A stretch of DNA of 64,000 nt from an uncultured Candidatus Saccharibacteria bacterium (GCA_964364265.1 CAYILA010000005.1:6418-70417), one strand, 5' to 3'; shown: positions 1,922 to 60,876, counted from the stretch's first letter. Made by a program: numbers and translations. Notes: generated by a model not told the origin, from the letters alone.

Positions 1922-2935
1922 ATGAAAAGACCCACATTTTCTATTCTATTGCCGGTCTACAAGTCGGCCGACATAGTCAGCGAAACAATCGATAGTATAA
2001 GAAAACAGACCTTTTTGGATTATGAATTAATCATCATTGACGATAAATCGCCCGATGATACTTTTCTTGTTCTAAAAAAATACGCCGCCAAAGACAGCCG
2101 CATCAGACTGTCCGCTAATAGAAAAAATCTGGGTTATGCCGGCAATTTACAGAAATGCTTGGATAAAGCTGCCGGAGAATTTGTTTTTCTAATGGGTAAC
2201 GATGATATTCTTTCGCCGATCGCTCTTTCTAGGACATATAAAGCTTTTCAAATGGATCCCGATGTCGGTGTTGTGACCAGACCATTTTACTGTTTTGAAA
2301 ACAGGGACATCAATCATGCCGTTAGGGTATTTGGCAAACCCCTTGATCCATCAAAAGATCGGATTATTTCAATTTTTGATAGCAAAAAGAAATATCTAAG
2401 CGTCTATACCTCCATCGGCCAATTATCGGGACTGGCAATGCGCCGGCGTTGGATCGAAGCTCCGGTCAACCCCCATATTTTTCCGGCTCACGCATATCCT
2501 TTCTTCTCTATTTTCAGAAACCACAAGGTGGTCCATCTTAAGGACTATCTCTTGGCGGTCAGAATTTTTTCTAGCCAGACAAGATCAATGTCATCAATTT
2601 ACGATCCCTCTCCGACCTGGACTTGGATAAAGATGTTCCAAACACTTCTGCCGGGCAAGAAATATGAATTACCGAGGAATTGGGGCATCGATTTTATCGC
2701 AAGCGACTTTGTCGGTTTAATTCAAATTAAAAACTTTGGGAAATACCGGCAGCTTTTCCGTGAAATCGGAGTGTTGATAAAATACCGTCCCAAAAATTTG
2801 ATAAATCCTAAGTTTTGGTTTTATGCTATTGGCGTAATGCTGACACCGCGATTTATCTTAATTCCACTGGTTGATTGGTTCAAAAGAAGGGTTAAATCCC
2901 AGAAACTAAAAAATGTTAAGTTGAAGATGAGATGA
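1922..2935 (+). CDS. glycosyltransferase family 2
   Basis: [42 protein letters not shown] is a classic GT2 N-terminus with a DxD region. Confidence 0.75.
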
Positions 2936-3468
2936 GAATAATCAGAAACACAATCGGATATCTTATTTCCTTGCCGGCCCGTTTGAAGGGAATGAAATTC
3001 GGCCGGAATAGTTTTATTGCCCCCGGCTACGATTTTCTTTTTGAACAGCTCAAGAATATCTCGGTAGGGGATGATTGTTTAATTGGAAAAAATGCTTGGA
3101 TTCACACCATCGATAGAGGTGAAATTAGAATCGGTGATCAGACGATAATCGGTCGTCGTGTCACCATTGCGGCCAGAAATAAAATTAAAATAGGAAAAAA
3201 CTGTTTGATTTCATATGATGCCTCGTTCCTCGATCATGACCATAATTTTAAAAACAAAAAGTTATCTCCTGCCAAAAGCGGATTAACTTCAGGCTACGAG
3301 ATTGAAATTGGAGACGGTTGCTTTATCGGCGCACATTCATTTATCTTAAAAGGGGTTCGCTTGGGAAGAAATTGTGTTGTAGGAGCAAATAGCGTGGTTA
3401 CAAAGTCATTTCCCAATTATTCTATGATCGGGGGTAATCCTGCCAAACTTATTAAAAAGATTAAATAA
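2932..3468 (+). CDS. hexapeptide-repeat (LbH) sugar O-/N-acetyltransferase
   Basis: Repeated [LIV]-G-x-x-x-x hexapeptides ([31 protein letters not shown]). ATGA overlap with the upstream GT2. Confidence 0.7.
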
Positions 3469-3478
3469 GTAGAACCAT

Positions 3479-4501
3479 ATGGCCAAATCTCAAAAAAGGC
3501 AAAAAAAAATCAAATCCGATCAGTCAATATCGATCATCACCGTAACATATAATGCCAAGAATTTTATCAAAGATTATGTAAAATCAATTTTTTCCGGTGT
3601 CGCAAAACCAACCGAAGTATTGATATATGATAGCGGATCAACAGATGGTACGGTTGAACGGATTAAGAAGTATCAAAAATTGCATCCGGAAATACATTTA
3701 TTTGAAGGGGACGGTATTGGTTTTGCGGCAGGCAATAATTTTCTGGCGAAGAAAGCGACCGGTCATTTTTTGTTCATCTTGAATCCCGATACAAAAATCG
3801 ACCGCAATTGTTTATCTAATCTTGTCGCCAATCCTTTTCGCGAGGAAAAAATCTTGATGCCGAAAAGGTATCTTTTTGATGGCACTTTTTTGCATCACGG
3901 GATGGGATTGGATGTTTTTGGCTATCCGGCAGACGGCGAAATATTTTTTGTGGACGGGGCGGCAATCTTTTTAAAGACAAAAACATTTATCAATCTGGGT
4001 ATGTTTGATCCCGATTATTTTATGTTCCAAGAGGATGTTGATTTGTCCTGGAGAGCCCATCTTCGCGGTGTTGAGCTTGTAACAGCCGAAGACGCCTCAC
4101 TTTTTCATTACAGCGGTGGATCAACTCCAAGCGGAGGGATTAAAAAAGAAATAAAAAACTATACTACGAATACTTTCAAAAGGTATCTTGGCGAAAGGAA
4201 TACTTTACAAAACATCATTAAGAATTATTCATTTCCAACTTTGCTGATTATCATTCCGTCTGTTATTCTTTTTAGTTTACTTGAAATTATATTATTTACA
4301 GTTACACTTAACTTTAAATTCGTGGGTTGTTATCTGAAAGCTTATGGTTGGGTTATAATCAATATTAGAAAAATTTTAAAGAAAAGAAGGATTGTTCAGG
4401 CCAAAAGAAAGGTCAATGACTTTATGATACTGAAGAAGATGTATATCGGTAGTTCAAAAGTACAGTATTTCAAAAAATATGGCATTCCCAAGATAAGATG
4501 A
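3479..4501 (+). CDS. glycosyltransferase family 2
   Basis: ISIITVTYNAKNFIKDYVKSI ... GNNFLAKKATGHFLFILNPDTKID is a GT2 (rhamnosyltransferase-like) signature. The C-terminus is hydrophobic. Confidence 0.7.
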   Translation: MAKSQKRQKKIKSDQSISIITVTYNAKNFIKDYVKSIFSGVAKPTEVLIYDSGSTDGTVERIKKYQKLHPEIHLFEGDGIGFAAGNNFLAKKATGHFLFILNPDTKIDRNCLSNLVANPFREEKILMPKRYLFDGTFLHHGMGLDVFGYPADGEIFFVDGAAIFLKTKTFINLGMFDPDYFMFQEDVDLSWRAHLRGVELVTAEDASLFHYSGGSTPSGGIKKEIKNYTTNTFKRYLGERNTLQNIIKNYSFPTLLIIIPSVILFSLLEIILFTVTLNFKFVGCYLKAYGWVIINIRKILKKRRIVQAKRKVNDFMILKKMYIGSSKVQYFKKYGIPKIR

Positions 4502-5640
4502 ATAATAAAACAATACTTTATAATCTAAACACCTTTCCCGTGATCGGGAACACCGTTCCGTTGGTCAACAAAATGAGCTATTGGCAGAAATCCGGTTATT
4601 CTGTTACTGTTTTTGGGAGCCGAGCTTTGATTGGAAAAATTAAAAAAGAAAAATTTCTGCTTCCTTTCAAAGCAATCGAAATTGTCGGTAAGAGTGAATC
4701 TAACAACAAAATCAGATTTATGATTGAATGCTTGAGAAGAAATTTAATTTCATTGTCGTATTTGAAAAAAATTGAAGAGAGAAAATTCGCGGTTGTCTAC
4801 ACGATATCATCGGTTTTGGATCTGGTCTTTATCCCTTTCTTGTTAAAAGTTCGCAAGAACAAATTCCTTTGGTTGACTGTTTTTGACAATACGGTACCGT
4901 TCACCGGCGCAGGAAATAAGTTAATACGTTTCTTAAACTGGTTTTTCTTTAGCATCAGTATCCGGTTGATTAAAAAAGCAGACCGCGTCTTTGCTCCATC
5001 TGGTAATGTCCGTTCATATCTAGAGAGCAGACACTTTCCGGCTCAAAAAATCATACCAACTTGTGGCGGAATCGAAGTCGATCTGATTAAAAAGGCGAAG
5101 AAAATGAAAGGCATTAAAATCGATGCCTTATACATTGGCCGCATCAACGAAGCCAAAGGTATCTATGAATTACTCAATGTGCTCGCATTGGTCAAGAAAA
5201 AAATCCCGAATTTTCAGTTGGCGATCATGGGAAATGGCGAAGAGACCACGGTAATTAAATTTAAGGATAGGATACAGAAGATGGGATTATCTGATAATGT
5301 ATTCTTTTTGGGTTACAAAGAGGGACAAGAAAAATTCGACATTATCAAAAGTAGTAAATCCTTCTGGTTTTTTAGTGAAGCCGAGGGATTCCCGCAGGTT
5401 ATAATGGAGGCAGTCTCGTCCGGCCTTCGGTGTTTCGTTTATTGTCTACCGGCCTATGATTATTATAAGAATAATGAATTGATTATTTTTAAACAGAAAG
5501 ATTATAAATCAGTAGCTAAAGCGGTCATTGCTTTATTTAATAAAAAGGATTTTGAGAACAAGGCGGGCGCCGCCTTGCTGATGGATTTTTCCTGGAAAAG
5601 AATCGCCAAACTTGAACTTGAGTCAATAATAAACCGCTAA
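4498..5640 (+). CDS. glycosyltransferase family 1 (GT4-like)
   Basis: C-terminal EAEGFPQVIMEAVSSG motif typical of GT-B/GT4 enzymes. Confidence 0.6.
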   Translation: MNNKTILYNLNTFPVIGNTVPLVNKMSYWQKSGYSVTVFGSRALIGKIKKEKFLLPFKAIEIVGKSESNNKIRFMIECLRRNLISLSYLKKIEERKFAVVYTISSVLDLVFIPFLLKVRKNKFLWLTVFDNTVPFTGAGNKLIRFLNWFFFSISIRLIKKADRVFAPSGNVRSYLESRHFPAQKIIPTCGGIEVDLIKKAKKMKGIKIDALYIGRINEAKGIYELLNVLALVKKKIPNFQLAIMGNGEETTVIKFKDRIQKMGLSDNVFFLGYKEGQEKFDIIKSSKSFWFFSEAEGFPQVIMEAVSSGLRCFVYCLPAYDYYKNNELIIFKQKDYKSVAKAVIALFNKKDFENKAGAALLMDFSWKRIAKLELESIINR

Positions 5641-5649
5641 GACCCATTT

Positions 5650-8049
5650 ATGTCAAACAAATATTTAAAAATATTTATTAAAACCCTGCCTTTTTTATTT
5701 CTTATTCTTGTTTCTTTGATTCCCGTTTACTACACTCGGGGTAAATTGGCCATTGGCGGAGATACGATCTTACCGTTTAACCCGGAAGGGGTTCAAAAGT
5801 TTCTTTGGCAATGGTACGGAAGTGAAAACGGTCAATACTTTTCTCAGAATCTAGCGCCACTCTATTTGATTTATAAAATTGCCGCCTATTTTTCTTTGAG
5901 CTTAACGACAACCGCGGCCATTATTTTATTTACATTAAACTTTATCTCCGGTCTGGCAATTTATAAGCTTTGCAAATTGATTTATCAACCGGAAAATCCT
6001 CTCTACCTTTCTTTCCCGATTGTTTTTTATGTTATATCGCCGGCTTTATTGAATAGTTGGAGGTACTGTTTTATCTATGCCTTTGCGCCTTGGTTTGTTT
6101 ATTTTGTAATTAAGATATTGATTACCAGACGGATTACCATCCGAGATCTTGTCCTCTCGAATTTTGTCATCTTTTTTGCCTCGATCGATCTGCCAAATCC
6201 CAAGTATCTTTTCTTTTTATTTATATTTCTTTTTTCCGCGATGATTATGGCTTTGACTTTGAAAATAATTAATTTAAAGTCAATTGCCAGAAACTGGTGG
6301 AAAGCGGTCCTGTTTTCAGTGTATTTGTTTTACTTGATTATCCCATTGATTTTTTTCGCCTTGAGCTTTTCTCCCGGGAATTACAAAATACACATCAAGC
6401 AAAATTACAGCGACACAGGTCTTTTTATGGATGAAAACTCCTCGACTATTAACAGGATGGTCCAACTGCATCATAGCGGTCTCAACATTAACGCCAGGGA
6501 CAGGATCGCTTATAATGCTTCAAAGAAAGTCGTATTCGCCGGATCCGTGTTTTTTATTTGTATTTTACTGGGTCTATTATTCAAAAAGAAAAAACCTAAA
6601 TTTGAGATCGAGTTAATCTTTCTGGCACTGGTCTGTCTGTTCCTCTTCTTTGCCGTCGGCCCTAATCCGCCTTTCGGACAGATATACAAGACAATAGTCT
6701 CAAGAATAGGCGCCCTGGCCTTTTTGAGGACAACAGCCGGCGCAGTTTTTTTCCTCTCTATCTTTTATTCGGTGTTGTTATTTGGTTTTATCGAGAATTT
6801 CAAGGGCAAATCAAAACTGATAATTACGATTCTGCTAACCGTCGCGCTATTGGTATCGAGCTACCCTCTGATAAACGGTAAGTTCTATCAAAATCTGGAT
6901 GTGGTCGGAAATATGGCGATAGACACAAAAAGCCATGGGGTTAATCTGCCAAAGGAATATTTTGATATGAAGAAAGTGATTGATGAACAAAAAATCGACG
7001 GAAAACTCCTTAGTCTGAAAAATGATCTGGCCTATATGAATACAACCTGGGGTTATTTCGGACCAAGCGTTTATAATTTTATGTTTGATTATTACAACAT
7101 CGGTTATAACAACATATTTTCAACTCCAGAAAATCATAGCGTGGCCTATACGCTTGATGATAAGTCCCTAATAACCAATAAAAATGTTCCGTCCTTTAAG
7201 GTTGACAATACAACCAAAGTCCAAGAAAACAATCTTTTGATATTGAGTAGTGTCGCTTCAAACAGATATCTGCCTCATTTCTGGATTCCAAAGCAAACTT
7301 ATTCAAGCAACGAACCAATTGGAGATTTGATTCAAGATTCGAATCAAAATCAGTTTGGCAACGCTGTTTATCTGGTAGACCAGAACAAATCATCTCAAGA
7401 TATATTATCTGCCCTTCCAAAGACAACGGAAGATAAACCGACATTGGAGTATAAAAAAATCAATCCGACCAAATATCGAGTTATTGTTCATGGAGCAAAA
7501 AAGCCGTTTCCACTTATTTTTAATGAATCCTCGAATAAATACTGGAAGATATATTTAGAAAAGCATGTCCCAATCGATACTGAATCCCTAACCGAATCAT
7601 TAAGTCGCTATAATCAATTTAGGGGAGATGAAAACTTCCAAGCCACAAAAGAAGAGACAGGCAACTATATCCGGCAGGGTTTCATCTCTGAACTTAAATC
7701 AGGCGAAAGTTTAGATTTTATATCCAAAAATATGGCCGGTACTATTCAAAACAACAACCTGGATAATGGATCTTTTCTTGAAACTTGGTTTCAAAAATCG
7801 ATTCTTGATGATAAGCGACTGACTGCCAATGGCTATTCAAATTCCTGGTTGATGGATCCAAATACCATCTGCGGCCAATCAAACCTCTGCCAGATAAATT
7901 CCGATTCAAGCTTTGATTATGAAATAGTAGCCGAGTTTCTGCCTCAAAGAATATATTGGACCTCCCTCCTTGTGAGTATTTCCGCAGTATTCGTTAGCGT
8001 TATTTATCTCCTTGCGATAGGGCTAATAGCAATCTGGAAAAAGAGATGA
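5650..8049 (+). CDS. large polytopic membrane protein with extracytoplasmic C-terminal domain (putative GT-C-like glycosyltransferase)
   Basis: 799 aa. The N-terminal ~400 aa are strongly hydrophobic with many predicted TM helices, followed by a long soluble domain and a final TM helix. It lies in a glycan locus. No specific family could be recognised by eye. Confidence 0.4.
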   Translation: MSNKYLKIFIKTLPFLFLILVSLIPVYYTRGKLAIGGDTILPFNPEGVQKFLWQWYGSENGQYFSQNLAPLYLIYKIAAYFSLSLTTTAAIILFTLNFISGLAIYKLCKLIYQPENPLYLSFPIVFYVISPALLNSWRYCFIYAFAPWFVYFVIKILITRRITIRDLVLSNFVIFFASIDLPNPKYLFFLFIFLFSAMIMALTLKIINLKSIARNWWKAVLFSVYLFYLIIPLIFFALSFSPGNYKIHIKQNYSDTGLFMDENSSTINRMVQLHHSGLNINARDRIAYNASKKVVFAGSVFFICILLGLLFKKKKPKFEIELIFLALVCLFLFFAVGPNPPFGQIYKTIVSRIGALAFLRTTAGAVFFLSIFYSVLLFGFIENFKGKSKLIITILLTVALLVSSYPLINGKFYQNLDVVGNMAIDTKSHGVNLPKEYFDMKKVIDEQKIDGKLLSLKNDLAYMNTTWGYFGPSVYNFMFDYYNIGYNNIFSTPENHSVAYTLDDKSLITNKNVPSFKVDNTTKVQENNLLILSSVASNRYLPHFWIPKQTYSSNEPIGDLIQDSNQNQFGNAVYLVDQNKSSQDILSALPKTTEDKPTLEYKKINPTKYRVIVHGAKKPFPLIFNESSNKYWKIYLEKHVPIDTESLTESLSRYNQFRGDENFQATKEETGNYIRQGFISELKSGESLDFISKNMAGTIQNNNLDNGSFLETWFQKSILDDKRLTANGYSNSWLMDPNTICGQSNLCQINSDSSFDYEIVAEFLPQRIYWTSLLVSISAVFVSVIYLLAIGLIAIWKKR

Positions 8050-41415: not shown

Positions 41416-42649
41416 CGGACGATTTGTCGGAATAGGCGAGTCGATGACACGCTATACCTTGGAGATTCTGCGGGGTATTTTGAAATTGGACCGAGAGAAT
41501 CAATACACTCTCCTGATAAGACCGTGCGGCCGTAAATCGCTGGATGATTATTTTGCGGTCATTCCCGCGGAAGCGGGAATCCAGGGGATGGATCCTCGGA
41601 TCAAGTCCGAGGATGATAATAGGGGTAAACTAATAATTCAACAATATAACAATTTGACAATTGAATTGTTGGACATACCTCACTATTCAATTAACGAACA
41701 ATTGAAATTATTGAAGTACTTGAACCGGAAGAATTTTGATCTGGTACATTTTATCCAGTTCAACCACCCGATCCGTTATAAGGGCAGTTTCGTAGTAACG
41801 GTCCATGACATGACGATGGTTGGCTATCTGCGCCGCGCCAACCCGATTCGCCGGATTGCTTTTACGAAAGTTATGGAATCGGCTGTTGCAAACTCCAAAA
41901 AAATCATCACTGTTTCAAACACGGCTAAAAAAGAGATCGTTGATTTTTATAAAATAAATCCGGAGAAGGTTGAGGTCGTCTACAATGGTTTGAATCATGA
42001 AAGTTATAACTCCAGAGTCAGGGAAAAGAGTACTGAAATTAAAAAAGTCCTGGAAAAGTTCAATATCGACAAAGAATACATTCTCTACACCGGAATGTGG
42101 AAGGAGCACAAGAATATTTTACGGTTAGTGTATGCCTTTGAAAAATTCTCTGAAATGCGTCTTCCTGATCCAAAATCGCGGATTATAAAACTGGTTTTGG
42201 CCGGAAAAGCGGACAAAGATGAGAAGGAAATACTTACCGAACTCGGCCGGATCAACCAATCCTTAAATATGAAATACAATGTCCGCGAGGCGATTATCAC
42301 GCCGGGATATATCGAAGAGTCAGAGCTTCCCTTGCTTTACAGCGGAGCAACCGCCTATGTCTTTGCCTCGCTCTCCGAGGGATTCGGCATGCCGCCGCTC
42401 GAATCAATGGCTTGCGGCACGCCCGTAATAGCTTCGGAGGTTTCAGCCATGCCGGAGGTATTGGGGGAGGCCGCCATTTACTTTGATCCGCTGGACTCGA
42501 CCAATATTGCCGAGGCGATGGAGGAAGTAACCGAGAACAAAAATGAGAGAGTTGAGATAATTAAAAAGGGCTACGACCAGGTTAAAAAGTACGATTGGTC
42601 AAAAACTGCCGAGGAAACGCTCAAGGTTTACAAGGATATTCTTAAGTAA
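41396..42649 (+). CDS. glycosyltransferase family 1 (GT4)
   Basis: [20 protein letters not shown] is a canonical GT4 E-x7-E region. Confidence 0.75.
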
Positions 42650-42667
42650 AAAGTCCATAATGTAAGT

Positions 42668-42745
42668 TTGTCATCCTAACGCTTTTATTCTTGTCATCCC
42701 GACCAACGCGGAGGGATCTTTAAAAAGATTCCTCGATTCGTTTCA
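42668..42745. repeat. palindromic repeat family 1 copy (gtcatcccga...gagggatc core), partial
   Basis: gtcatcctaacgc...gtcatcccgaccaacgcggagggatctttaaaaagattcctcgattcg shares the arms of the other family-1 copies. Confidence 0.6.
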
Positions 42746-42882
42746 TCAGCCCAAAGGGTCCCCTTAGGGGGAAATCAGCCAATCAGCAACGCCCTTAAGC
42801 ACTGATTGAGTGTAAATGGGTGTAAATACGAGAGACCCGCACCACTAAAGTAAAGGTGCGGGTCTCGGTAAACCACCCCGAT

Positions 42883-43287
42883 TTATCGGGGTGGCGGAAA
42901 AAGGTGGATGATTAGCGGTGATTTTTTCACCGCTAATTTCGTTGTCCCCAAAGAGCGATTCCTGTCCCAGAGGCAGAAGTCATACTTCCTTCCCGAGACA
43001 AGCTCTACATCTCCCTCAAAGAAGGGGTAGTGCACTCTGCGCGCCAGGATAACGCTGCCGTAGTGGTAACTTCCTGACGCAAAACAGAGTTCCCCTCTCT
43101 TAATTCCCTCGGAAACGCCCGGGACGACGATCCGGACATGAATTGACCAGGTATTGATAGGTTTCAGTACCAGGATTTCGACCTCGTCGTTAGCCGGCGC
43201 GCTCCAGAGCGTCGGGAGCAGGCCGCAAACAACCGCGGCCCCGATGATGACCATGATCCAAAGGAGAAATACCTTGACCATTTTCAT
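42883..43287 (-). CDS. small secreted hypothetical protein (GC-rich, atypical composition)
   Basis: 134 aa with a signal/TM N-terminus. Strong RBS (aggagagg) 7 nt upstream. Noticeably higher GC than neighbouring genes. It abuts a palindromic repeat (43304-43366). Confidence 0.35.
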   Translation of the reverse strand: MKMVKVFLLWIMVIIGAAVVCGLLPTLWSAPANDEVEILVLKPINTWSIHVRIVVPGVSEGIKRGELCFASGSYHYGSVILARRVHYPFFEGDVELVSGRKYDFCLWDRNRSLGTTKLAVKKSPLIIHLFPPPR

Positions 43288-43303
43288 TTTATTCCTCTCC
43301 TAA

Positions 43304-43366
43304 CCGCGGAGTTAGTCAAAACACACGCTGCAGCGTATGTTTTGACACAGTTTTCATGCTCCGCGG
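43304..43366. repeat. long inverted repeat containing perfect 32-bp palindrome gtcaaaacacacgctgcagcgtatgttttgac (copy 1 of 2)
   Basis: The palindrome is centred on CTGCAG and flanked by ccgcggag/ctccgcgg. It shares ~55 bp with the second copy at 47203-47258. Confidence 0.8.
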
Positions 43367-43575
43367 AATTTGGTCGTTGAGCGTATAATAGCAGGAAATA
43401 GTAATAAGTCAATATTGAAGAGAATAATCAAATCTGTTAAATTGTAGGCGTTGAATTTTACTATTATTCAAGCTGAATCTAATTCAGTTGGCCCCGGCAC
43501 CAGAACCCGATGAACGGGTACGGTGCGGGGTTAATTTTCTTGAAAGGACCGGGTAGTGAAATTTCGAAAGCGATT

Positions 43576-43836
43576 ATGCATTACGTATACTTAATAAGAA
43601 GCGAAGCAAACGACCAATTGTATATTGGTTATACAACAAATATTAAACGAAGGATTTTGGAGCATAATCGCGGCGAAAACCAGTCAACGAAACATTATAA
43701 ACCATGGAAATTAATATTCGCCGAAATCTATATTGAAGAGATGGATGCGAAGCGTCGAGAACAATATTTAAAAACTAATCAAGGGAGTAGGTTGTTGAAG
43801 AGAATGCTAAAGGAATATTTCTACAGGCATCCATAA
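43576..43836 (+). CDS. GIY-YIG nuclease domain protein
   Basis: HYVYLIRSEANDQLYIGYTTNIKRRILEHNRG matches the GIY-YIG motif (YVY...YIGxT...R..EH). The start is probably ATG at 43576 rather than the ORF-track 43510. Confidence 0.7.
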   Translation: MHYVYLIRSEANDQLYIGYTTNIKRRILEHNRGENQSTKHYKPWKLIFAEIYIEEMDAKRREQYLKTNQGSRLLKRMLKEYFYRHP

Positions 43837-43863
43837 TCGAAATTCTACTACCCGGGGAGATAT

Positions 43864-45978
43864 ATGGTAACAAACGCCATGATCATCGCTTTTGGGGCAT
43901 CGGCGCTGGCTCTTATCTATGGAATCTTGCTGATCACAATCATCAACAAGAAACCGGCCGGGAACAAGAGAATGACCGATATCGCCAAGGCAATCTCAGA
44001 GGGTGCTTCCGCTTTTCTAAACCGCCAGTACACGACTGTGGCGGCTGTGGCGGCGGTACTATTCGTAATTTTGCTCTACGCCTTTAACTGGCAGACGGCA
44101 GTCGGTTTTATCACCGGTGCAATTCTCTCGGCATTGGCCGGATACATCGGCATGAACATCTCGGTTCGGGCCAATGTCCGCACCGCCGAGGCCTCCAAAG
44201 ACGGAGTTGGCGCCGGTATGGGCGTGGCATTCAAGGCCGGAACAGTTACCGGTATGTTTGTAGTCGGGCTCTCGCTCCTAGCTGTGACTTTGTTCTATTA
44301 CATTTTTAGAAATACGACCGCTCTGATCGGATTCGGATTCGGCGGTTCACTGATCTCAATCTTTGCCCGTCTTGGCGGGGGAATCTTCACCAAAGGCGCC
44401 GATGTCGGGGCCGACTTGGTCGGCAAGGTGGAAGCCGGTATTCCGGAAGACGACCCACGCAACCCGGCTGTAATCGCCGATAATGTCGGGGACAATGTCG
44501 GCGACTGCGCCGGTATGGCCGCCGATTTATTCGAAACCTATTCAGTCACCACCGTGGCGGCAATGCTTCTGGGATCTCTGATGTTTATCAGTTTTGAAAA
44601 CGCAATCGTTTATCCGCTCGTCTTGGGCGGTATCTCAATTGTGGCTTCTATTTTGGGCACATTTTTCGTCAGATTATCCAAGAATTCAAAAAATATTATG
44701 GGCGCGCTTTACAAAGGTCTGATCGCCTCCGGCGTCTTGGCTGGCGGCGCCTTCTATTTTGCAACCAAGTGGTTAATGGAAGGAAACGGACTTTATTCCG
44801 TCAACAACCTTTACTATGCATCATTGTTAGGCCTATTAGTCACAGCTCTGATGGTTGTCATCACCGAGTACTTTACCTCGACCAAATACAATCCGGTCAA
44901 GTCAATCGCCGACGCTTCAACCACAGGGCACGGCACCAATGTGATCGCCGGCCTTGCTGTTTCGATGCGTTCGACTGCCGCACCGGTTATCGTCATTGCC
45001 GCCGCCATTCTTGGCGCATTCCAATTAGCCGATCTTTACGGCGTAGCAATTGCCGTTGTTTCAATGCTTTCAATGGCCGGAATTGTGGTCGCCATCGACG
45101 CTTTCGGTCCGGTTGTCGATAACGCCGGCGGTATCGCCGAAATGGCCGAGCTTCCGGAAAGTGTTCGCGTCCACACCGACGCCCTCGATGCGGTTGGAAA
45201 TACAACCAAAGCGGTTACCAAGGGTTACGCTATCGCTTCTGCCGGATTGGCCGCCGTGGTACTTTTCGCGGCATATATTCAGGAACTTGCCAATGCCGGC
45301 AAGATCTTAAGTTTTGATCTGGCCGATCCGAAAGTAATTGTCGGCCTATTCATCGGCGGACTCTTACCTTATTACTTCGGTTCGCTGGCCATGGAAGCGG
45401 TTGGAAAAGCAGGAAGCGCAGTTGTGATTGAAGTTAGACGCCAGTTCCGCGAGATTAAGGGAATTATGGAGGGCAAAGCCAAGCCGGATTATAAAAAAGC
45501 GGTTGATATCGTAACTCGAGCCGCTCTTCGCGAGATGATTTTGCCGACATTCGTGGCTGTTGCCTCACCACTACTGGTCGGTTTTCTCTTGGGTCCGGTC
45601 GCCCTTGGTGGATTCCTAGTTGGTACAATCATCACCGGTATTTTCATCGCAATCTCAATGACCTCCGGCGGCGGAGCTTGGGACAACGCCAAAAAATATA
45701 TTGAGAGCGGTGCGCATGGCGGAAAGGGTTCCTTGGCCCATCAGGCCGCTGTTACCGGCGATACAGTCGGCGATCCATACAAGGACACCGCCGGCCCGGC
45801 TATTAACCCGATTATTAAAGTTGTAAATATTATCGCCCTGATGATCGCCCCGATGTTGGCAAAATCCGAGGGGTCGCTGACGATGAAAGTGGTGGTTGTC
45901 GGTATAGTCGTGATTGCTTTTGCCGCTTACGCATTATTCGGCACCAAGAAATCTGTCTCGCCTAAAGCCGGTAATTAA
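43864..45978 (+). CDS. hppA: membrane-bound H+/Na+-translocating pyrophosphatase
   Basis: [18 protein letters not shown] and [10 protein letters not shown] motifs; 704 aa multi-TM. Confidence 0.9.
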
Positions 45979-46209
45979 ATGAAAAAAGATCATTCAAATG
46001 AGGTTGCGGTATCTCTTGACCGGTTTGAAGGAAATAAAGCGGTCTTGATTCTGGATGGCGAGGAAATAAATATTCCCAAAAAATATTTAAAAGATGCCAA
46101 AGAGGGGGATCAGGTTGTGATGATCTTGACCACTGACGAGGAGCTTAGGAAACAGAAAGAGGAGCGCGCCAAGAAGCTCCTAAACGAAATCCTCAAAGAG
46201 GGAAAGTAA
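45979..46209 (+). CDS. small hypothetical protein (DUF3006-like)
   Basis: 76 aa (LDRFEGNKAVLILDGEEINIPKKYL). ATGA-type junction with hppA. Followed by a terminator. Confidence 0.4.
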   Translation: MKKDHSNEVAVSLDRFEGNKAVLILDGEEINIPKKYLKDAKEGDQVVMILTTDEELRKQKEERAKKLLNEILKEGK

Positions 46210-46235
46210 AATAAGATAAAATATTGAATAAATGA

Positions 46236-46263
46236 AAAGCCCCAGTTTTCCGGGGCTTTTCTG
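46236..46263 (+). terminator. rho-independent terminator
   Basis: aaaagccccagttttccggggctttt: GC stem (gcccc/ggggc) followed by a T-run, immediately after the hppA-DUF3006 pair. Confidence 0.6.
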
Positions 46264-46494
46264 ATTATAAAACCGCTATTGCCAGAATATCTTAGTATGT
46301 GGTAGATAAATAGTTTCTCGCCCAAGGCGAGTAGGCCTGCTTTCAGGCCACAATGCCCGGATTTCTCTTTCTTCGGGAAGGGGAACGAACGAGTGGAAGC
46401 ACACCAGGTCGATCAAACCGCTTTGCGCGGTAATCTCACCCAAGGTGAAGAGGGCTGCTGTCAGCCCACCCGGTCTTCCTGGAGGAGGAAAAAG

Positions 46495-47128
46495 GATGAA
46501 AACTGATTCGTGGCGGCAGGGCGGTAAGACTCGGTATTACCGGGTTGAGATCGGAGCTGATAAGCCGCTTTCTGTTGGAGTGGTTTGGGAGTATGACTTT
46601 GAACCGGCGTTCAAGTTCGTATCTTTCGATGATTACAATCCCATCAGCGGTCAGCGGAAAACCAGGGTCATCGGTCAACCAAACAAGCCGATGAAAGCGA
46701 TCCACAAGGACTTCGTCAAGTATCTGCGGAGGCAGGAAATGCTGGAAAACCGGTATTTTCTCAGAGTTATTTTCCAGTGTATGGTTTACGACAACGATGA
46801 GCGTCATCGCCCGCCTGTCGTAATACGACCAATCCTCTGTTTCGAGGTCGAGATTGCCTCGGAAGTATACAATGGTATCGAGTCGAAAACACTTGCGCTC
46901 GGCATTGGCTGGCTCGAGGGTACTGTCGAAAATGTGCCCAGCATCCAGTTTTCCAGGAGGCAGTTCGAGATCAAGGATGGATTAATTTGCTGTTTTCTGG
47001 AGTACTCGGCAGACCTCAATCTCCACAACCTCGAGGCCTTTGAATTTGCTATGGTTGCAAGTGGATGGGCTCGTTCCGAGCCCCTCTTATCGGATGTTGC
47101 TGGAGTATACCGACAGGATGGCACATAA
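46495..47128 (+). CDS. hypothetical protein in GC-rich island (no recognisable domain)
   Basis: Strong RBS ggaggagg before the ATG at 46495 (the ORF-track start at 46445 is probably too early). GC ~50% versus ~40% for neighbours. Followed by a palindromic repeat at 47203-47258. Confidence 0.35.
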
Positions 47129-47202
47129 AATGTGCCACAGAGTATATCCCCGTGATGGTTCGCCGCCACGGGGATTTTCGTATCTTGGTGCCCTCTACAA
47201 TT

Positions 47203-47258
47203 CCTAATTGCGGAGTTGGTCAAAACATACGCTGCAGCGTATATTTTGACACAGTTAA
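47203..47258. repeat. palindromic repeat gtcaaaacatacgctgcagcgtatattttgac with shared left flank (copy 2 of 2)
   Basis: cctaattgcggagttggtcaaaacatacgctgcagcgtatattttgacacagtt is ~90% identical to 43296-43350. Confidence 0.8.
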
Positions 47259-47368
47259 TTTGTCATGTCTGTATTGGTTTATAACCCTAGTCTAACAAAC
47301 CAGTCTGTTGTAGTGGGGGGTGAAGAGTAGGAGTGGTGAATGTTCGCTAATTGTGCTAATTTGAGTGT

Positions 47369-48952
47369 ATGAACATTCACGAACTACAAGAAAAAATATC
47401 AGAGAAAGAGTTTGATTTTGTGCGCGGGATATTAAACATAACTCCGAATGTGCGGGTATTTCTGGTCGGGGGAATCGTCCGCGACGCCTTACTCGGCCGG
47501 GAGAATCCGGATTATGATTTTGTGGTTGAAAACATTGAAATCGATAAGTTGGTCGAGATATTAAAGGGTTACGGCAGGGTAACTGATGTTTCCGGACGCA
47601 ATTTCGGGGTGATTAAATTCACTCCGGAGGGGGAAAAACGGCAGTTTGACCTCTCCATACCACGAACGGAGAGGTATCAGAGCGGAAAGCGAAGGTCTGA
47701 CGCAGAGGTCAAGACCGATAAAGTGACTCTGAAAGACGATTTCATGCGCCGTGACTTTACGGTAAATGCAATCGCAATTCCATTGAATAAAGTCATTTCT
47801 ACAAAATCAGATCCATTGTCATCCCGAGCGACCGGAAGGGAGTCGAGGGATCTTTTAGAAGATTCCTCCGCTTCGGTCGGAATGACAGGAAACGACGGGT
47901 TGATGGAAATCTACGACCTCTTCGGTGGGGTTGAAGACATTCAAAACAAGATTATCCGGGCGGTTGGTGATCCGGAGGAAAGATTCGAAGAAGACCCGAC
48001 AAGGATCCTACGGGCCGTCAGATTTGCCTGCCGGCTTGATTTTGAAATTGAGCCAGAAACATTTTCGGCAATGAAAAAATTAAAAGGGGAGATATTAAAA
48101 ACATTTGAAAAAGAGGACGGAACCAAACTTCAAAGAGTGTCGAATGAGATGATTGGAATTGAAATCGCCAAGGCAATCGAAGGAAATCCGATTAAATTTT
48201 TAAGTCTTTTCGACGATTTGGGCTTACTTCCGGAGTTATTGCCGGAAATCGAAAAGTTAAAGGGTGTAGAACAGCCGATCGAGTGGCACAGTGAGGGTGA
48301 CGCCTTTGTCCATACTAAATTGGTGGTTTCAAATATTCCGGCCGATTCGTCGCTCGAACTAAAATTAGCGGCATTATTCCACGACATTGGAAAATATGAC
48401 ACGAGGGAACCCAAAACAGTAAATCAGCTAATCAGTAAATCAGCTAATCAGCAAACAATTCACTTTTATGGGCATGACAAGGTTTCGGTTGAAAAAGCGA
48501 GGCTAATACTAAATAGATACAGGTTCAAAAAAGATCTTATCGAAAATGTCTCTTGGTTGATCGAAAACCATATGAGGATTATGTCATTCCCGCAGATGAG
48601 AATATTTAAACAAAAAGATATGGCGCGCCATCCGCAATTTTTAAATCTGATCAAATTATCGGAGGCTGATGATGCGGCGACTATTCCGACCACGGCCAAA
48701 AAGTCGGTTTTTCTGCCGACGGTACGGGAAATCGTAAAACAGCTTGAGGAAGAAGAGAAAGCCGGCAAACCACGCCAGATATTGAACGGTAATGAAATCA
48801 TAGAACTATTAAAACGGGAAAAGCCGGGTTTTGATATTAAAAGTGAGGGAAAACTGATTGGAGAACTTAAGAGAAAAGTGAACGAAGAGTATGACGAAGG
48901 TCTTATTAAAAGCAAAAACGAAGCCCTTGATTGGCTTCGTTCCAATGTCTGA
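47369..48952 (+). CDS. cca: CCA-adding tRNA nucleotidyltransferase with HD domain, carrying an in-frame repeat-element insertion
   Basis: LVGGIVRDALLG, RRDFTVNAIAI, GDPEERFEEDPTRILRAVRF (head domain) and LAALFHDIGK (HD). Residues SSRATGRESRDLLEDSSASVGMT are encoded by a copy of the family-1 palindromic repeat (47818-47887). Confidence 0.8.
   Translation: MNIHELQEKISEKEFDFVRGILNITPNVRVFLVGGIVRDALLGRENPDYDFVVENIEIDKLVEILKGYGRVTDVSGRNFGVIKFTPEGEKRQFDLSIPRTERYQSGKRRSDAEVKTDKVTLKDDFMRRDFTVNAIAIPLNKVISTKSDPLSSRATGRESRDLLEDSSASVGMTGNDGLMEIYDLFGGVEDIQNKIIRAVGDPEERFEEDPTRILRAVRFACRLDFEIEPETFSAMKKLKGEILKTFEKEDGTKLQRVSNEMIGIEIAKAIEGNPIKFLSLFDDLGLLPELLPEIEKLKGVEQPIEWHSEGDAFVHTKLVVSNIPADSSLELKLAALFHDIGKYDTREPKTVNQLISKSANQQTIHFYGHDKVSVEKARLILNRYRFKKDLIENVSWLIENHMRIMSFPQMRIFKQKDMARHPQFLNLIKLSEADDAATIPTTAKKSVFLPTVREIVKQLEEEEKAGKPRQILNGNEIIELLKREKPGFDIKSEGKLIGELKRKVNEEYDEGLIKSKNEALDWLRSNV
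47818..47887. repeat. palindromic repeat family 1 copy, inserted in-frame in cca
   Basis: gtcatcccgagcgaccggaagggagtcgagggatcttttagaagattcctccgcttcggtcggaatgac is nearly the reverse complement of the copy at 60776-60876. Confidence 0.75.
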
Positions 48953-53605: not shown

Positions 53606-53655
53606 CGTTATGTTTCAATAGTTTGGAAACACCCTCTTGCATATTTGATTATTAC

Positions 53656-53689
53656 CCCCGCTATAACAAACCAGTTTGTTATAGCGGGG
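53656..53689. terminator. bidirectional hairpin between convergent P-type ATPase and pyrG
   Basis: Perfect palindrome ccccgctataacaaac-ca-gtttgttatagcgggg (16-bp arms). A related hairpin lies at 47285-47318. Confidence 0.5.
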
Positions 53690-55449: not shown

Positions 55450-55497
55450 ATTTTTCCTCCGGAAAATGACTTTACATAAATAAAAACAGACTCACTT

Positions 55498-55565
55498 GTC
55501 ATCCCGAGCGAGCGTAGCGAGTCGAGGGATCTCTCCATTCTCGAAATCTCACCAGTCGAGACAAC
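55498..55565. repeat. palindromic repeat family 1 copy (half element)
   Basis: gtcatcccgagcgagcgtagcgagtcgagggatctctcc..., intergenic between pyrG and the NTase gene. Confidence 0.6.
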
Positions 55566-56988: not shown

Positions 56989-57085
56989 TGTCATCCCGAC
57001 TGAGCGGAGCGAACGGAGGGATCCCTCGGCTCGTTGTACTCGCTCGGGATGACATTCGCCACTTTCACCTTTATGGACTTTCGAC
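56989..57085. repeat. palindromic repeat family 1 copy (full hairpin) between groES and groEL
   Basis: gtcatcccgactgagcggagcgaacggagggatccctcggctcgttgtactcgctcgggatgac plus the cattcgccactttcac...ctttcgact tail shared with the 60776 copy. Confidence 0.75.
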
Positions 57086-60775: not shown

Positions 60776-60876
60776 TGTCATTCCGACCGACCGAAGGGAG
60801 CGGAGGAATCTTTCAAAAGATCCCTCAACTCGCTATGCTCGCTCGGGATGACATTCGTCACTTTCGACTTTCGACT
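60776..60876. repeat. palindromic repeat family 1 copy (full element) between efp and rpsR
   Basis: gtcattccgaccgaccgaagggagcggaggaatctttcaaaagatccctcaactcgctatgctcgctcgggatgacattcgtcactttcgactttcgact. Confidence 0.75.

Follow-up and report, generated by a model that had tools for sequence, protein, structure and literature searches.

We analysed a 64,000-nucleotide stretch of DNA (GCA_964364265.1, CAYILA010000005.1:6418-70417), hereafter the window, which represents a Patescibacteria population sampled from Hainich groundwater (well H51, 0.1 um). The element in question is a 55-nucleotide (nt) direct repeat, two copies of which, 91% identical and spaced 3904 nt apart, lie on either side of the pyrophosphatase gene hppA. 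Each copy contains a 32-bp palindrome centred on CTGCAG (P1 in copy 1, P2 in copy 2), and this palindrome is probably an operator of a short PaaX-like regulator. The main features of the locus, in window coordinates, are the following (aa, amino acids; ORF, open reading frame; RBS, ribosome-binding site).

42832-42866, minus strand: hairpin resembling a terminator, GAGACCCGCACC...GGTGCGGGTCTC, after the 134-aa ORF, an inverted repeat read from the sequence
42883-43287, minus strand: 134-aa orphan ORF with a hydrophobic N-terminus, its RBS GGAGAGGAA abutting repeat copy 1
43298-43352: copy 1 of the 55-nt repeat, containing P1 at 43315-43346 (GTCAAAACACACGCTGCAGCGTATGTTTTGAC, one mismatch)
43385-43412, minus strand: promoter-like TTGACT-16-(TGc)TATTAT upstream of the 134-aa gene, top-scoring promoter match of the region (10/12 plus TG)
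43415-43443, plus strand: hppA promoter-like TTGAAG-17-TAAATT, back-to-back with the minus-strand -35 in the motif AGTCAAnATTGAA, read from the sequence
43549-43855, plus strand: GIY-YIG gene (43576-43836, 86 aa) in a 19-nt inverted repeat (43549-43567 / 43837-43855)
43864-46209, plus strand: hppA (H+/Na+ pyrophosphatase, 704 aa; PF03030, 2e-266) and a DUF3006 gene, native and syntenic
46496-47128, plus strand: 210-aa ORF, apparently derived from a retron-type reverse transcriptase (RT), residues 33-105 (46592-46810) corresponding to positions 10-84 of a 301-position profile
47202-47256: copy 2 of the 55-nt repeat, containing P2 at 47219-47250 (GTCAAAACATACGCTGCAGCGTATATTTTGAC, one mismatch)
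47369-48952, plus strand: cca (CCA-adding enzyme/poly(A) polymerase family), downstream of copy 2, 44% identical to its ortholog at the related locus L038

A previous, sequence-only reading of this DNA had placed a GIY-YIG gene, hppA (an H+-pyrophosphatase gene) and a DUF3006 gene between two near-identical direct copies of about 55 bp. That arrangement is correct, with coordinates that had been off by 1-2 nt. The same reading described the 32-bp palindromes as perfect, whereas each window copy contains one mismatch. P1 is composed of the arms GTCAAAACACACGCTG|CAGCGTATGTTTTGAC and P2 of GTCAAAACATACGCTG|CAGCGTATATTTTGAC, and in both the mismatch is C.A on the plus strand, which equals G.U on the minus strand. 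P1 and P2 were the only 32-bp cores (up to three mismatches) in the 64-kb window, where chance would be expected to produce 0. Fold z-scores were -6.7 for the P1 hairpin and -3.6 for the P2 hairpin, and an outer 8-bp stem, CCGCGGAG/CTCCGCGG (43304-43311 / 43360-43367), surrounds P1 at copy 1 only. In the predicted transcript of the 134-aa gene, which would start near 43378, P1 spans about +32 to +63, with the minus-strand promoter on one side and the RBS on the other. P2 is accompanied by 17 + 6 nt of the P1 flank, including TTAGGA, the start of the RBS next to P1, and therefore looks like a partial copy of the 5' untranslated region (UTR) that contains P1. Homology of the surroundings beyond 55 nt was seen only under permissive gap settings and was judged unconvincing. 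Copy 2 itself is part of a 1.16-kb lineage-specific insertion between the DUF3006 gene and cca.

A search for the palindrome beyond the window, as the sequence-only reading had advised, yielded three more copies, one of them at a regulator promoter. A transition-tolerant pattern run against a metagenome collection retrieved a perfect third copy, found only in contig L040 (same sample, assembly and coverage), while a DNA-pattern scan of a genome collection gave no match. With a looser pattern, three sites were recognised on L040: P3 (7658-7689), P4 (8455-8486) and P5 (10511-10542). P3 is perfect, extends to 36 bp and separates two divergent genes, one encoding a PaaX_M/Cas2-like regulator and the other a 230-aa protein. 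P4, also perfect, extends to 40 bp and comes directly after the 230-aa gene. P5, between a C39-like peptidase gene and fpg, has an A.A mismatch and a wobble pair, the latter on the strand opposite to that of the P1/P2 wobble. The five copies, all intergenic in about 78 kb of DNA, are 16+16-bp palindromes with 0-2 mismatches. Positions 1-7 (GTCAAAA) and 11-16 (ACGCTG) are invariant in 10/10 half-sites, and all substitutions fall at positions 8-10. This pattern of two fixed blocks with tolerant positions 8-10 indicates sequence-specific recognition, and not mere base pairing. The tetranucleotide usage of the non-rRNA part of L040 correlates with that of the window at r = 0.95; the corresponding values were 0.88-0.97 for 7-kb chunks of the window itself and 0.66-0.88 for relatives. 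L040 also carries a 23S rRNA gene that holds both a group I intron and an ORF for a LAGLIDADG endonuclease (coordinates 2046-6532, 4176-4427 and 5244-5921), followed by a 5S rRNA gene at 6795-6911.

The regulator gene next to P3, on the minus strand of L040 at 7042-7626, encodes a product of 194 aa, with an N-terminal winged helix and a Cas2-like middle domain (Pfam PaaX_M, PF20803, 3.8e-21, which covers the central Cas2-like domain). In the Protein Data Bank (PDB), the best match of its AlphaFold2 (AF2) model (predicted local distance difference test, pLDDT, 81.6) was E. coli PaaX (8a39; Foldseek E 1.2e-4 over 143 columns), followed by Cas2 proteins; a PDB sequence search with the regulator gave no match. 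Homologues number 311 at E <= 1e-5, about 195 aa long, and those with a named source come from Patescibacteria or carry the labels Cas2 or PaaX. Read on the regulator strand, P3 gives TTGACA-18-TACAAT-6-ATG, in which the outer TTGACA of the palindrome is the -35 element; the promoters of the regulator genes, here and on the two contigs that follow, are consensus matches, not mapped start sites. On contig L045, which encodes a regulator 59% identical to that of L040, the order regulator, divergent 225-aa gene, PadR-family gene, fpg is kept. A 32-bp palindrome of the same design and a different sequence, GTCATTATCATCGCAC|GTGCGATTATTTTGAC, occupies the position of P3, with TTGACT-17-TAAAAT-6-ATG, and a second one occupies the position of P4, after the orthologous 225-aa gene (its product is 43% identical to the L040 230-aa protein). 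On contig L049, where the regulator is 61% identical, the regulator gene has GTCATTTTCACGCTA|TAGCGTTGATTTGAC with TTGACA-17-TATTAT in front of it; the 5 kb of upstream DNA fetched contain no PadR gene, and the contig ends just after the regulator gene. Across species, the seven sites keep dyad symmetry in 92.7% of cells, six pairs having changed on both arms. The 225-230-aa protein (L040 7729-8421, L045 3221-3898) has a Cys-rich N-terminus, YNYCDRWCxKCxKTxKC, and no Pfam domain. Its gene is always divergent from the PaaX-like regulator gene, with palindromes on both sides in two species, and is thus likely to be a primary target of the regulator.

The site family, the location of P3 at the regulator promoter, the recurrence of the same design in L045 and L049, the confinement of changes to positions 8-10, the situation of P1 behind a promoter that relatives conserve, and the precedent of PaaX together lead us to predict that the 32-bp palindrome is the operator of the PaaX-like repressor of about 195 aa encoded elsewhere in the same genome, a prediction that we hold to be likely, though well short of certain. 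PaaX of E. coli binds to a long dyad, TGATTC-N27-GAATCA, and represses Px, its own promoter, through steric hindrance (PMC9493321). Since P3 includes the -35 of the regulator gene, binding of the repressor would stop its own transcription, and it would do so by occluding RNA polymerase, in the mode of PaaX at Px. When bound to copy 1, between the minus-strand promoter and the RBS, the repressor could block the 134-aa transcript or act as a roadblock to it. Copy 2, without an obvious target or promoter partner, is perhaps a relic, or perhaps an auxiliary or looping site. The comparison with PaaX of the E. coli/Pseudomonas phenylacetate regulon (PDB 8a39, 3l09) reveals both common and divergent traits. 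In common are the Cas2-like central domain, with PaaX as the best match of the model, and a long dyad site that overlaps the promoter of the regulator itself, as in Px autorepression (PMC9493321). By contrast, the L040 protein is without the PaaX C-terminal (effector) domain and has no paa genes nearby, and its site is a contiguous 32 bp, GTCAAAA-N3-ACGCTGCAGCGT-N3-TTTTGAC, instead of two half-sites separated by N27.

Several observations weigh against the predicted operator. Classical promoter overlap is seen at P3 alone, P2 and P4 being without a recognisable adjacent promoter, and when the TTGAC ends of P1, P2, P4 and P5 were tried as -35 elements, no good -10 was present at 16-18 nt. Relative to P3, P4 carries a double change in symmetric positions, AT>TC with its mirror AT>GA, which is a signature expected of hairpin selection or palindrome copying more than of a dimer site. 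The mismatches of P1 and P2 read as G.U on the minus strand, so that the 5' UTR of the 134-aa gene may form an RNA hairpin. Binding alone does not explain why 55 bp, rather than 32 bp, are common to P1 and P2. We infer that L040 and the window belong to one genome; the two contigs derive from the same assembly, with a coverage of 7 each, and are not physically linked. Finally, the pattern used in the metagenome scan was strict and would miss P4- or P5-like variants, and the copy count is to be read as at least five sites.

A structural hairpin repeat, either REP/REPIN-like or an RNA stem-loop of UTRs, that had spread or been kept as a hairpin and was recognised, if at all, by a factor other than PaaX, would accommodate the presence of five intergenic copies in about 78 kb. 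It would also fit the fully compensated double substitution in P4, the minus-strand G.U pairs of P1 and P2 with their low z-scores and the extra 8-bp stem at P1, and the predicted location of P1 within a transcribed 5' UTR. We nevertheless consider it unlikely. Changes are limited to 3/16 stem positions with two blocks fixed, as sequence recognition would demand, P5 combines a wobble on the opposite strand with an A.A mismatch, P3 is located between divergent promoters, and sites of the same design and different sequence at orthologous regulator positions in two other species would not be expected of a spreading repeat. REP/REPIN elements with their RAYT genes are also short imperfect intergenic palindromes, sometimes paired; here, on the other hand, few copies are seen (at least five in about 78 kb), changes are confined to a 3-bp spacer, species-specific versions stand at orthologous positions beside regulators, and no RAYT was found in the fetched DNA, nor a RAYT-like gene among the called neighbour genes. 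The palindrome might instead be the operator of another regulator, such as the PadR-family protein whose gene adjoins in L040, at 1.4 kb from P3, and is conserved beside the equivalent L045 sites; P4 and the second L045 site also lie beside the end of the PadR operon. In L049, however, the palindrome stands before the PaaX-like gene and the 5 kb upstream are free of a PadR gene, and in 3/3 species the -35 of the PaaX-like gene is built into the palindrome, both of which render this assignment improbable. A generic bidirectional transcription terminator would be strongly hairpinned and would come after gene ends, as P2 and P4 do. It would hardly be without a T-run on either strand and with an AT-rich outer stem, or stand between divergent gene starts as P1, P3 and P5 do, and the terminator scan did not report the palindromes, while the true terminator-like hairpins of the window look different; we give this explanation very little credence. 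The sequence-only reading had offered a regulatory or terminator element shared by two acquired genes. Of that proposal, the regulatory function agrees with the predicted operator and the flanking GC-rich ORFs are lineage-specific, neither the 134-aa nor the 210-aa ORF being present in the loci of relatives compared, whereas the terminator function is contradicted by the missing T-run and by 3/5 copies between divergent starts.

The remaining alternatives concern DNA mobility, and are best judged from the conservation of the locus. The nearest homologues of HppA are all from Patescibacteria (76-84% identity), and we compared the three closest hppA loci (L034/35, L036/37 and L038/39; HppA 79-83% identical). 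In all three, the order is that of the window: Wzy_C, Wzy_C, GT4, a minus-strand gene without a Pfam domain, hppA, DUF3006, cca and/or VanW, and a cation ATPase. This common gene order indicates that hppA-DUF3006 is ancestral at this place. The palindrome, the GIY-YIG gene and the 210-aa ORF are all absent from the L034-L039 loci, and none of the genes called in the window between 36.9 and 53.1 kb (about 6 kb around) encodes an integrase or transposase. A cca search of the genome collection found only sequences 25-33% identical from unrelated organisms, which were of no use for synteny. The sequence-only reading had also pointed to the GC content of the two orphan ORFs. The elevation is real (134-aa ORF 52.8%, with 64.4% at third codon positions; 210/227-aa ORF 49.8-50.6%; mean of window genes 42.3%, sd 4.9), but it is not special to these ORFs, since native hppA reaches 52.0%; the relatives L035 and L036 likewise have an hppA richer in GC than the locus around it. 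The GIY-YIG gene has 34.5% GC, and the leader of the 210-aa ORF 53.9%. That the 3.9 kb between the direct repeats constitute a small mobile cassette with palindromic ends or targets, mobilised by the GIY-YIG protein, was suggested by a segment bounded by 55-nt repeats of 91% identity and by a lineage-specific GIY-YIG gene itself enclosed in a 19-nt inverted repeat. We find this scarcely believable: there is no empty site, as hppA-DUF3006 is syntenic with both flanks in three relatives devoid of repeat and GIY-YIG gene, HppA has its nearest homologues in Patescibacteria, hppA is GC-rich in L035 and L036 too, the GIY-YIG protein consists of one UPF0213-type domain of 86 aa and has no DNA-binding modules, and further palindrome copies occur at unrelated loci. 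The cassette with palindromic insertion sites of the sequence-only reading is thus not upheld, given the synteny in repeat-less relatives and the lack of a called mobility gene nearby. The segment between the repeats is ancestral hppA-DUF3006 with a later GIY-YIG insertion, and no mobile unit. Core sites of a site-specific recombinase, with two arms of about 13 bp and the symmetric CTGCAG as spacer, could in principle support deletion or inversion of the 3.9 kb between P1 and P2 or the 0.8 kb between P3 and P4, or capture of foreign DNA. The architecture does resemble lox/dif-type sites, the sites are paired around segments, and both window copies adjoin lineage-specific GC-rich DNA on the same side. 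This too is improbable, as no recombinase gene was called near any site, the order and orientation of the segment are those of site-less relatives, all replicate assemblies have one arrangement, and the gene flanked by P3 and P4 is a conserved ortholog at the same place in L045.

The GIY-YIG gene is a small lineage-specific insertion, and nothing connects it to the palindromes. Its place is the hppA 5' UTR, with the conserved hppA promoter on one side and the hppA RBS on the other, a position where the relatives have no such gene. Its protein matches PF01541 (2.6e-18) and has 86 aa, or 108 if counted from an upstream ATG. The 19-nt inverted repeat brackets the ORF exactly and is unique in the window; its pairing would loop the ORF out of the mRNA (fold z = -4.1). 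When the 19-nt flank was searched in viral contigs, one exact match was found inside an unrelated phage ORF and was taken as chance. Among solved structures, its closest relatives are the UPF0213 proteins BH0048 and EF2693, together with SLX1. Like UPF0213/YhbQ-type proteins (PDB 1zg2, 1ywl) and the SLX1 nuclease domain, the protein is a single GIY-YIG domain of about 90 aa; what sets it apart from them is the lineage-specific insertion in the hppA 5' UTR with a 19-nt inverted repeat around the gene. The sequence-only reading had considered it to be of the homing-endonuclease type. The group I intron endonuclease model TIGR01453 gave 20.8 bits against a cut-off of 56, the protein is a stand-alone UPF0213/YhbQ domain, and, because it has no DNA-binding domain, its architecture is not that of I-TevI-type homing endonucleases.

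The 134-aa protein on the other side of P1 is a singleton (cluster of 1) among 15 billion proteins. Neither this ORF nor the 210/227-aa ORF was matched by Pfam, NCBIfam or PADLOC, and for the former the earlier statement that it has no recognisable domain holds. Its promoter has counterparts at the same place in L038 and L034 (TTGACT/TTGACA-17-TATAAT/TATAAA), and the back-to-back -35 motif is conserved in L038/L039, L034 and L036. The slot between the GT4 gene and hppA contains a different GC-rich minus-strand gene in the window and in each of the three relatives (L035 8693-9643, L036 8748-9476 and L038 9138-9812, with 66.5%, 66.3% and 53.9% GC, respectively, compared to 45-52% for the loci). 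Lipoprotein-like N-termini are present in 2/3 of the slot genes of relatives, and BLASTP detected no similarity between these and the 134-aa ORF. With its conserved promoter, an RBS and a terminator-like hairpin, the 134-aa gene forms a complete unit. Behind that promoter, the slot is a hotspot of gene turnover. Within the 3' end of the 134-aa ORF, at 42911-42937, there is a palindrome with 12-bp arms, ATTAGCGGTGATTTTTTCACCGCTAAT.

The second GC-rich ORF belongs to the insertion that contains copy 2. The following further features are found in or next to this ORF.

46234-46261, plus strand: intrinsic-terminator-like hairpin after DUF3006
46290-46495, plus strand: structured GC-rich leader of the RT-derived ORF, with two twin-hairpin modules
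46731-46780: polymorphic patch with 6 single-nucleotide polymorphisms (SNPs) in 3 haplotypes (replicate assemblies L001, L002 and L007), one with TAA at codon 84
47148-47186, plus strand: terminator-like hairpin CCCCGTG...CACGGGG with a T-rich tail after the RT-derived ORF, read from the sequence, its loop being too long for the terminator scan
47274-47318: degenerate copy (76%) of the hairpin at 53645-53689, within the 1.16-kb insertion

DUF3006 and cca overlap in L038, which identifies window positions 46210-47368 as the 1.16-kb lineage-specific insertion. It comprises the terminator, the leader, the 210-aa ORF, the second terminator-like hairpin, repeat copy 2 and the degenerate hairpin copy. 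The last of these forms, with 53645-53689, a 45-nt repeat of 76% identity, and the latter member is a strong hairpin with 20-bp arms between convergent genes. The presence of a degenerate hairpin copy beside repeat copy 2 suggests that the insertion is a patchwork of short copied pieces.

The ORF of the insertion had been reported as a 227-aa protein without a recognisable domain. That length presupposes a start at the GTG at 46445; a start at 46496, the ATG preceded by the strong RBS, gives a product of 210 aa, in which residues 33-105 share homology with retron-type RTs at their N-terminus. An exhaustive phmmer search matched residues 30-93 to the N-termini of proteins of about 300 aa, which are RVT_1 reverse transcriptases and score in PADLOC as retron RTs (RT_II-A, RT_X, RT_VI; E 1e-20 to 1e-33). 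A profile built from nine homologues gave 67.9 bits with the ORF, of which residues 33-105 are the only clearly homologous part. A word-indexed protein database returned only the ORF itself, and its single-sequence AF2 model (pLDDT 34) was unusable. The alignment of the ORF has no YxDD (YLDD), no palm C-E motifs, no intact motif B and no thumb, and no second RT fragment exists in the window. The RT homologues examined are solitary, with housekeeping genes as neighbours, and have upstream non-coding stretches of 400-690 nt. Upstream of one such solitary retron-type RT, on contig L041, a perfect 13-nt inverted repeat, AATTTGGGAGTTG / CAACTCCCAAATT (3706-3718, 3957-3969), encloses about 240 nt in an a1/a2-like arrangement.

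The leader of the ORF proved to be as GC-rich and hairpin-rich as had been described, with a minimum free energy (MFE) z of -2.4. It contains two 36-nt twin-hairpin modules (46316-46351 and 46434-46469) that are 81% identical, of the form CUCGCC-CAA-GGCGAG / GGCCUG-CUUU-CAGGCC, and both stems of the module exhibit compensatory changes, G-C to A-U and C-G to G-C. Rfam, scanned at gathering thresholds over the window and, as the earlier reading had proposed, by E-value over 42600-47500, gave no leader match; what it did return was noise close to the DUF3006 terminator. A covariance model built on the module recovered its two input copies and no other in the fetched DNA, no credible similarity connects the leader to the DNA upstream of the RT homologues, and the a1/a2 search at the leader produced one 8-nt candidate pair only (46243-46250 / 46498-46505). 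It is possible that the leader is a former retron-type non-coding RNA (ncRNA). From its sequence, the most apt description of the 210-aa ORF is that of a retron-type RT in decay, with a former ncRNA region. It is like retrons in the N-terminal RT homology and in the structured non-coding leader directly upstream, as at the loci of the homologues, and unlike them in that it has no YxDD, palm C-E or thumb, carries a segregating nonsense allele, has no effector gene and offers no demonstrable a1/a2 pairing.

The nonsense allele came to light in replicate assemblies of the same sample, which are 99.9-100% identical to the window. Compared to L001, 6/7 differences over 12.3 kb fall within 46731-46780, and the R2 assembly breaks at this patch (L004 ends at 46782, L007 starts at 46716). 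That a stop codon and radical replacements are tolerated supports weak or absent selection on the 210-aa ORF. The patch is an 11-bp quasi-palindrome with arms at 46739-46749 and 46770-46780. The window haplotype (H1) and H3 differ at four positions, all in the right arm, each of which is complementary to the left arm in H1. The arms pair by 9 Watson-Crick and 2 G.T pairs in H1, and have 3 mismatches in H3. The four right-arm changes are what a single template-switch mutation would produce. A diversity-generating retroelement was rejected as the source of the SNPs: the window has no second copy of 46650-46850, and the RT is truncated.

To our knowledge, almost nothing is known of transcription control in Patescibacteria, or the candidate phyla radiation (CPR), and a literature search for PaaX-like regulators or retrons of CPR bacteria yielded no paper. 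The regulator family, which often goes under 'Cas2' or 'PaaX' in databases, can now be paired with a concrete candidate 32-bp operator, and the first candidate targets are the regulator's own gene, the conserved 230-aa partner, fpg and the C39 peptidase, and the orphan secreted protein. We conclude that the palindrome is of interest as the predicted operator for a short PaaX-like family of CPR bacteria that has received little study, and that it reveals no new kind of mobile element. One may speculate, at rather long odds, on a PaaX/Cas2-like circuit specific to Patescibacteria that governs recently acquired or fast-turnover DNA (the variable-slot gene, the retron remnant) together with DNA-repair genes (fpg, GIY-YIG upstream of hppA), or else on palindromes as landing or recombination points that swap unrelated GC-rich genes in behind conserved promoters. 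Apart from the predicted operator, the locus illustrates how lineage-specific DNA builds up in a syntenic CPR chromosome, with a variable slot, a dead retron-type RT and a tiny GIY-YIG insertion; the slot, the RT and the template-switch patch are of some value for the study of CPR genome evolution.

Another palindromic repeat family, TGTCATCCCGA...TCGGGATGACA, was observed in the window at 42691-42734, 47816-47880 (inside cca), 55497-55540, 56989-57054 and 60776-60853. Its cca copy is in frame and coincides in position with a 37-aa insertion that is missing from the L038 ortholog (KVISTKSDPLSSRATGRESRDLLEDSSASVGMTGNDG).

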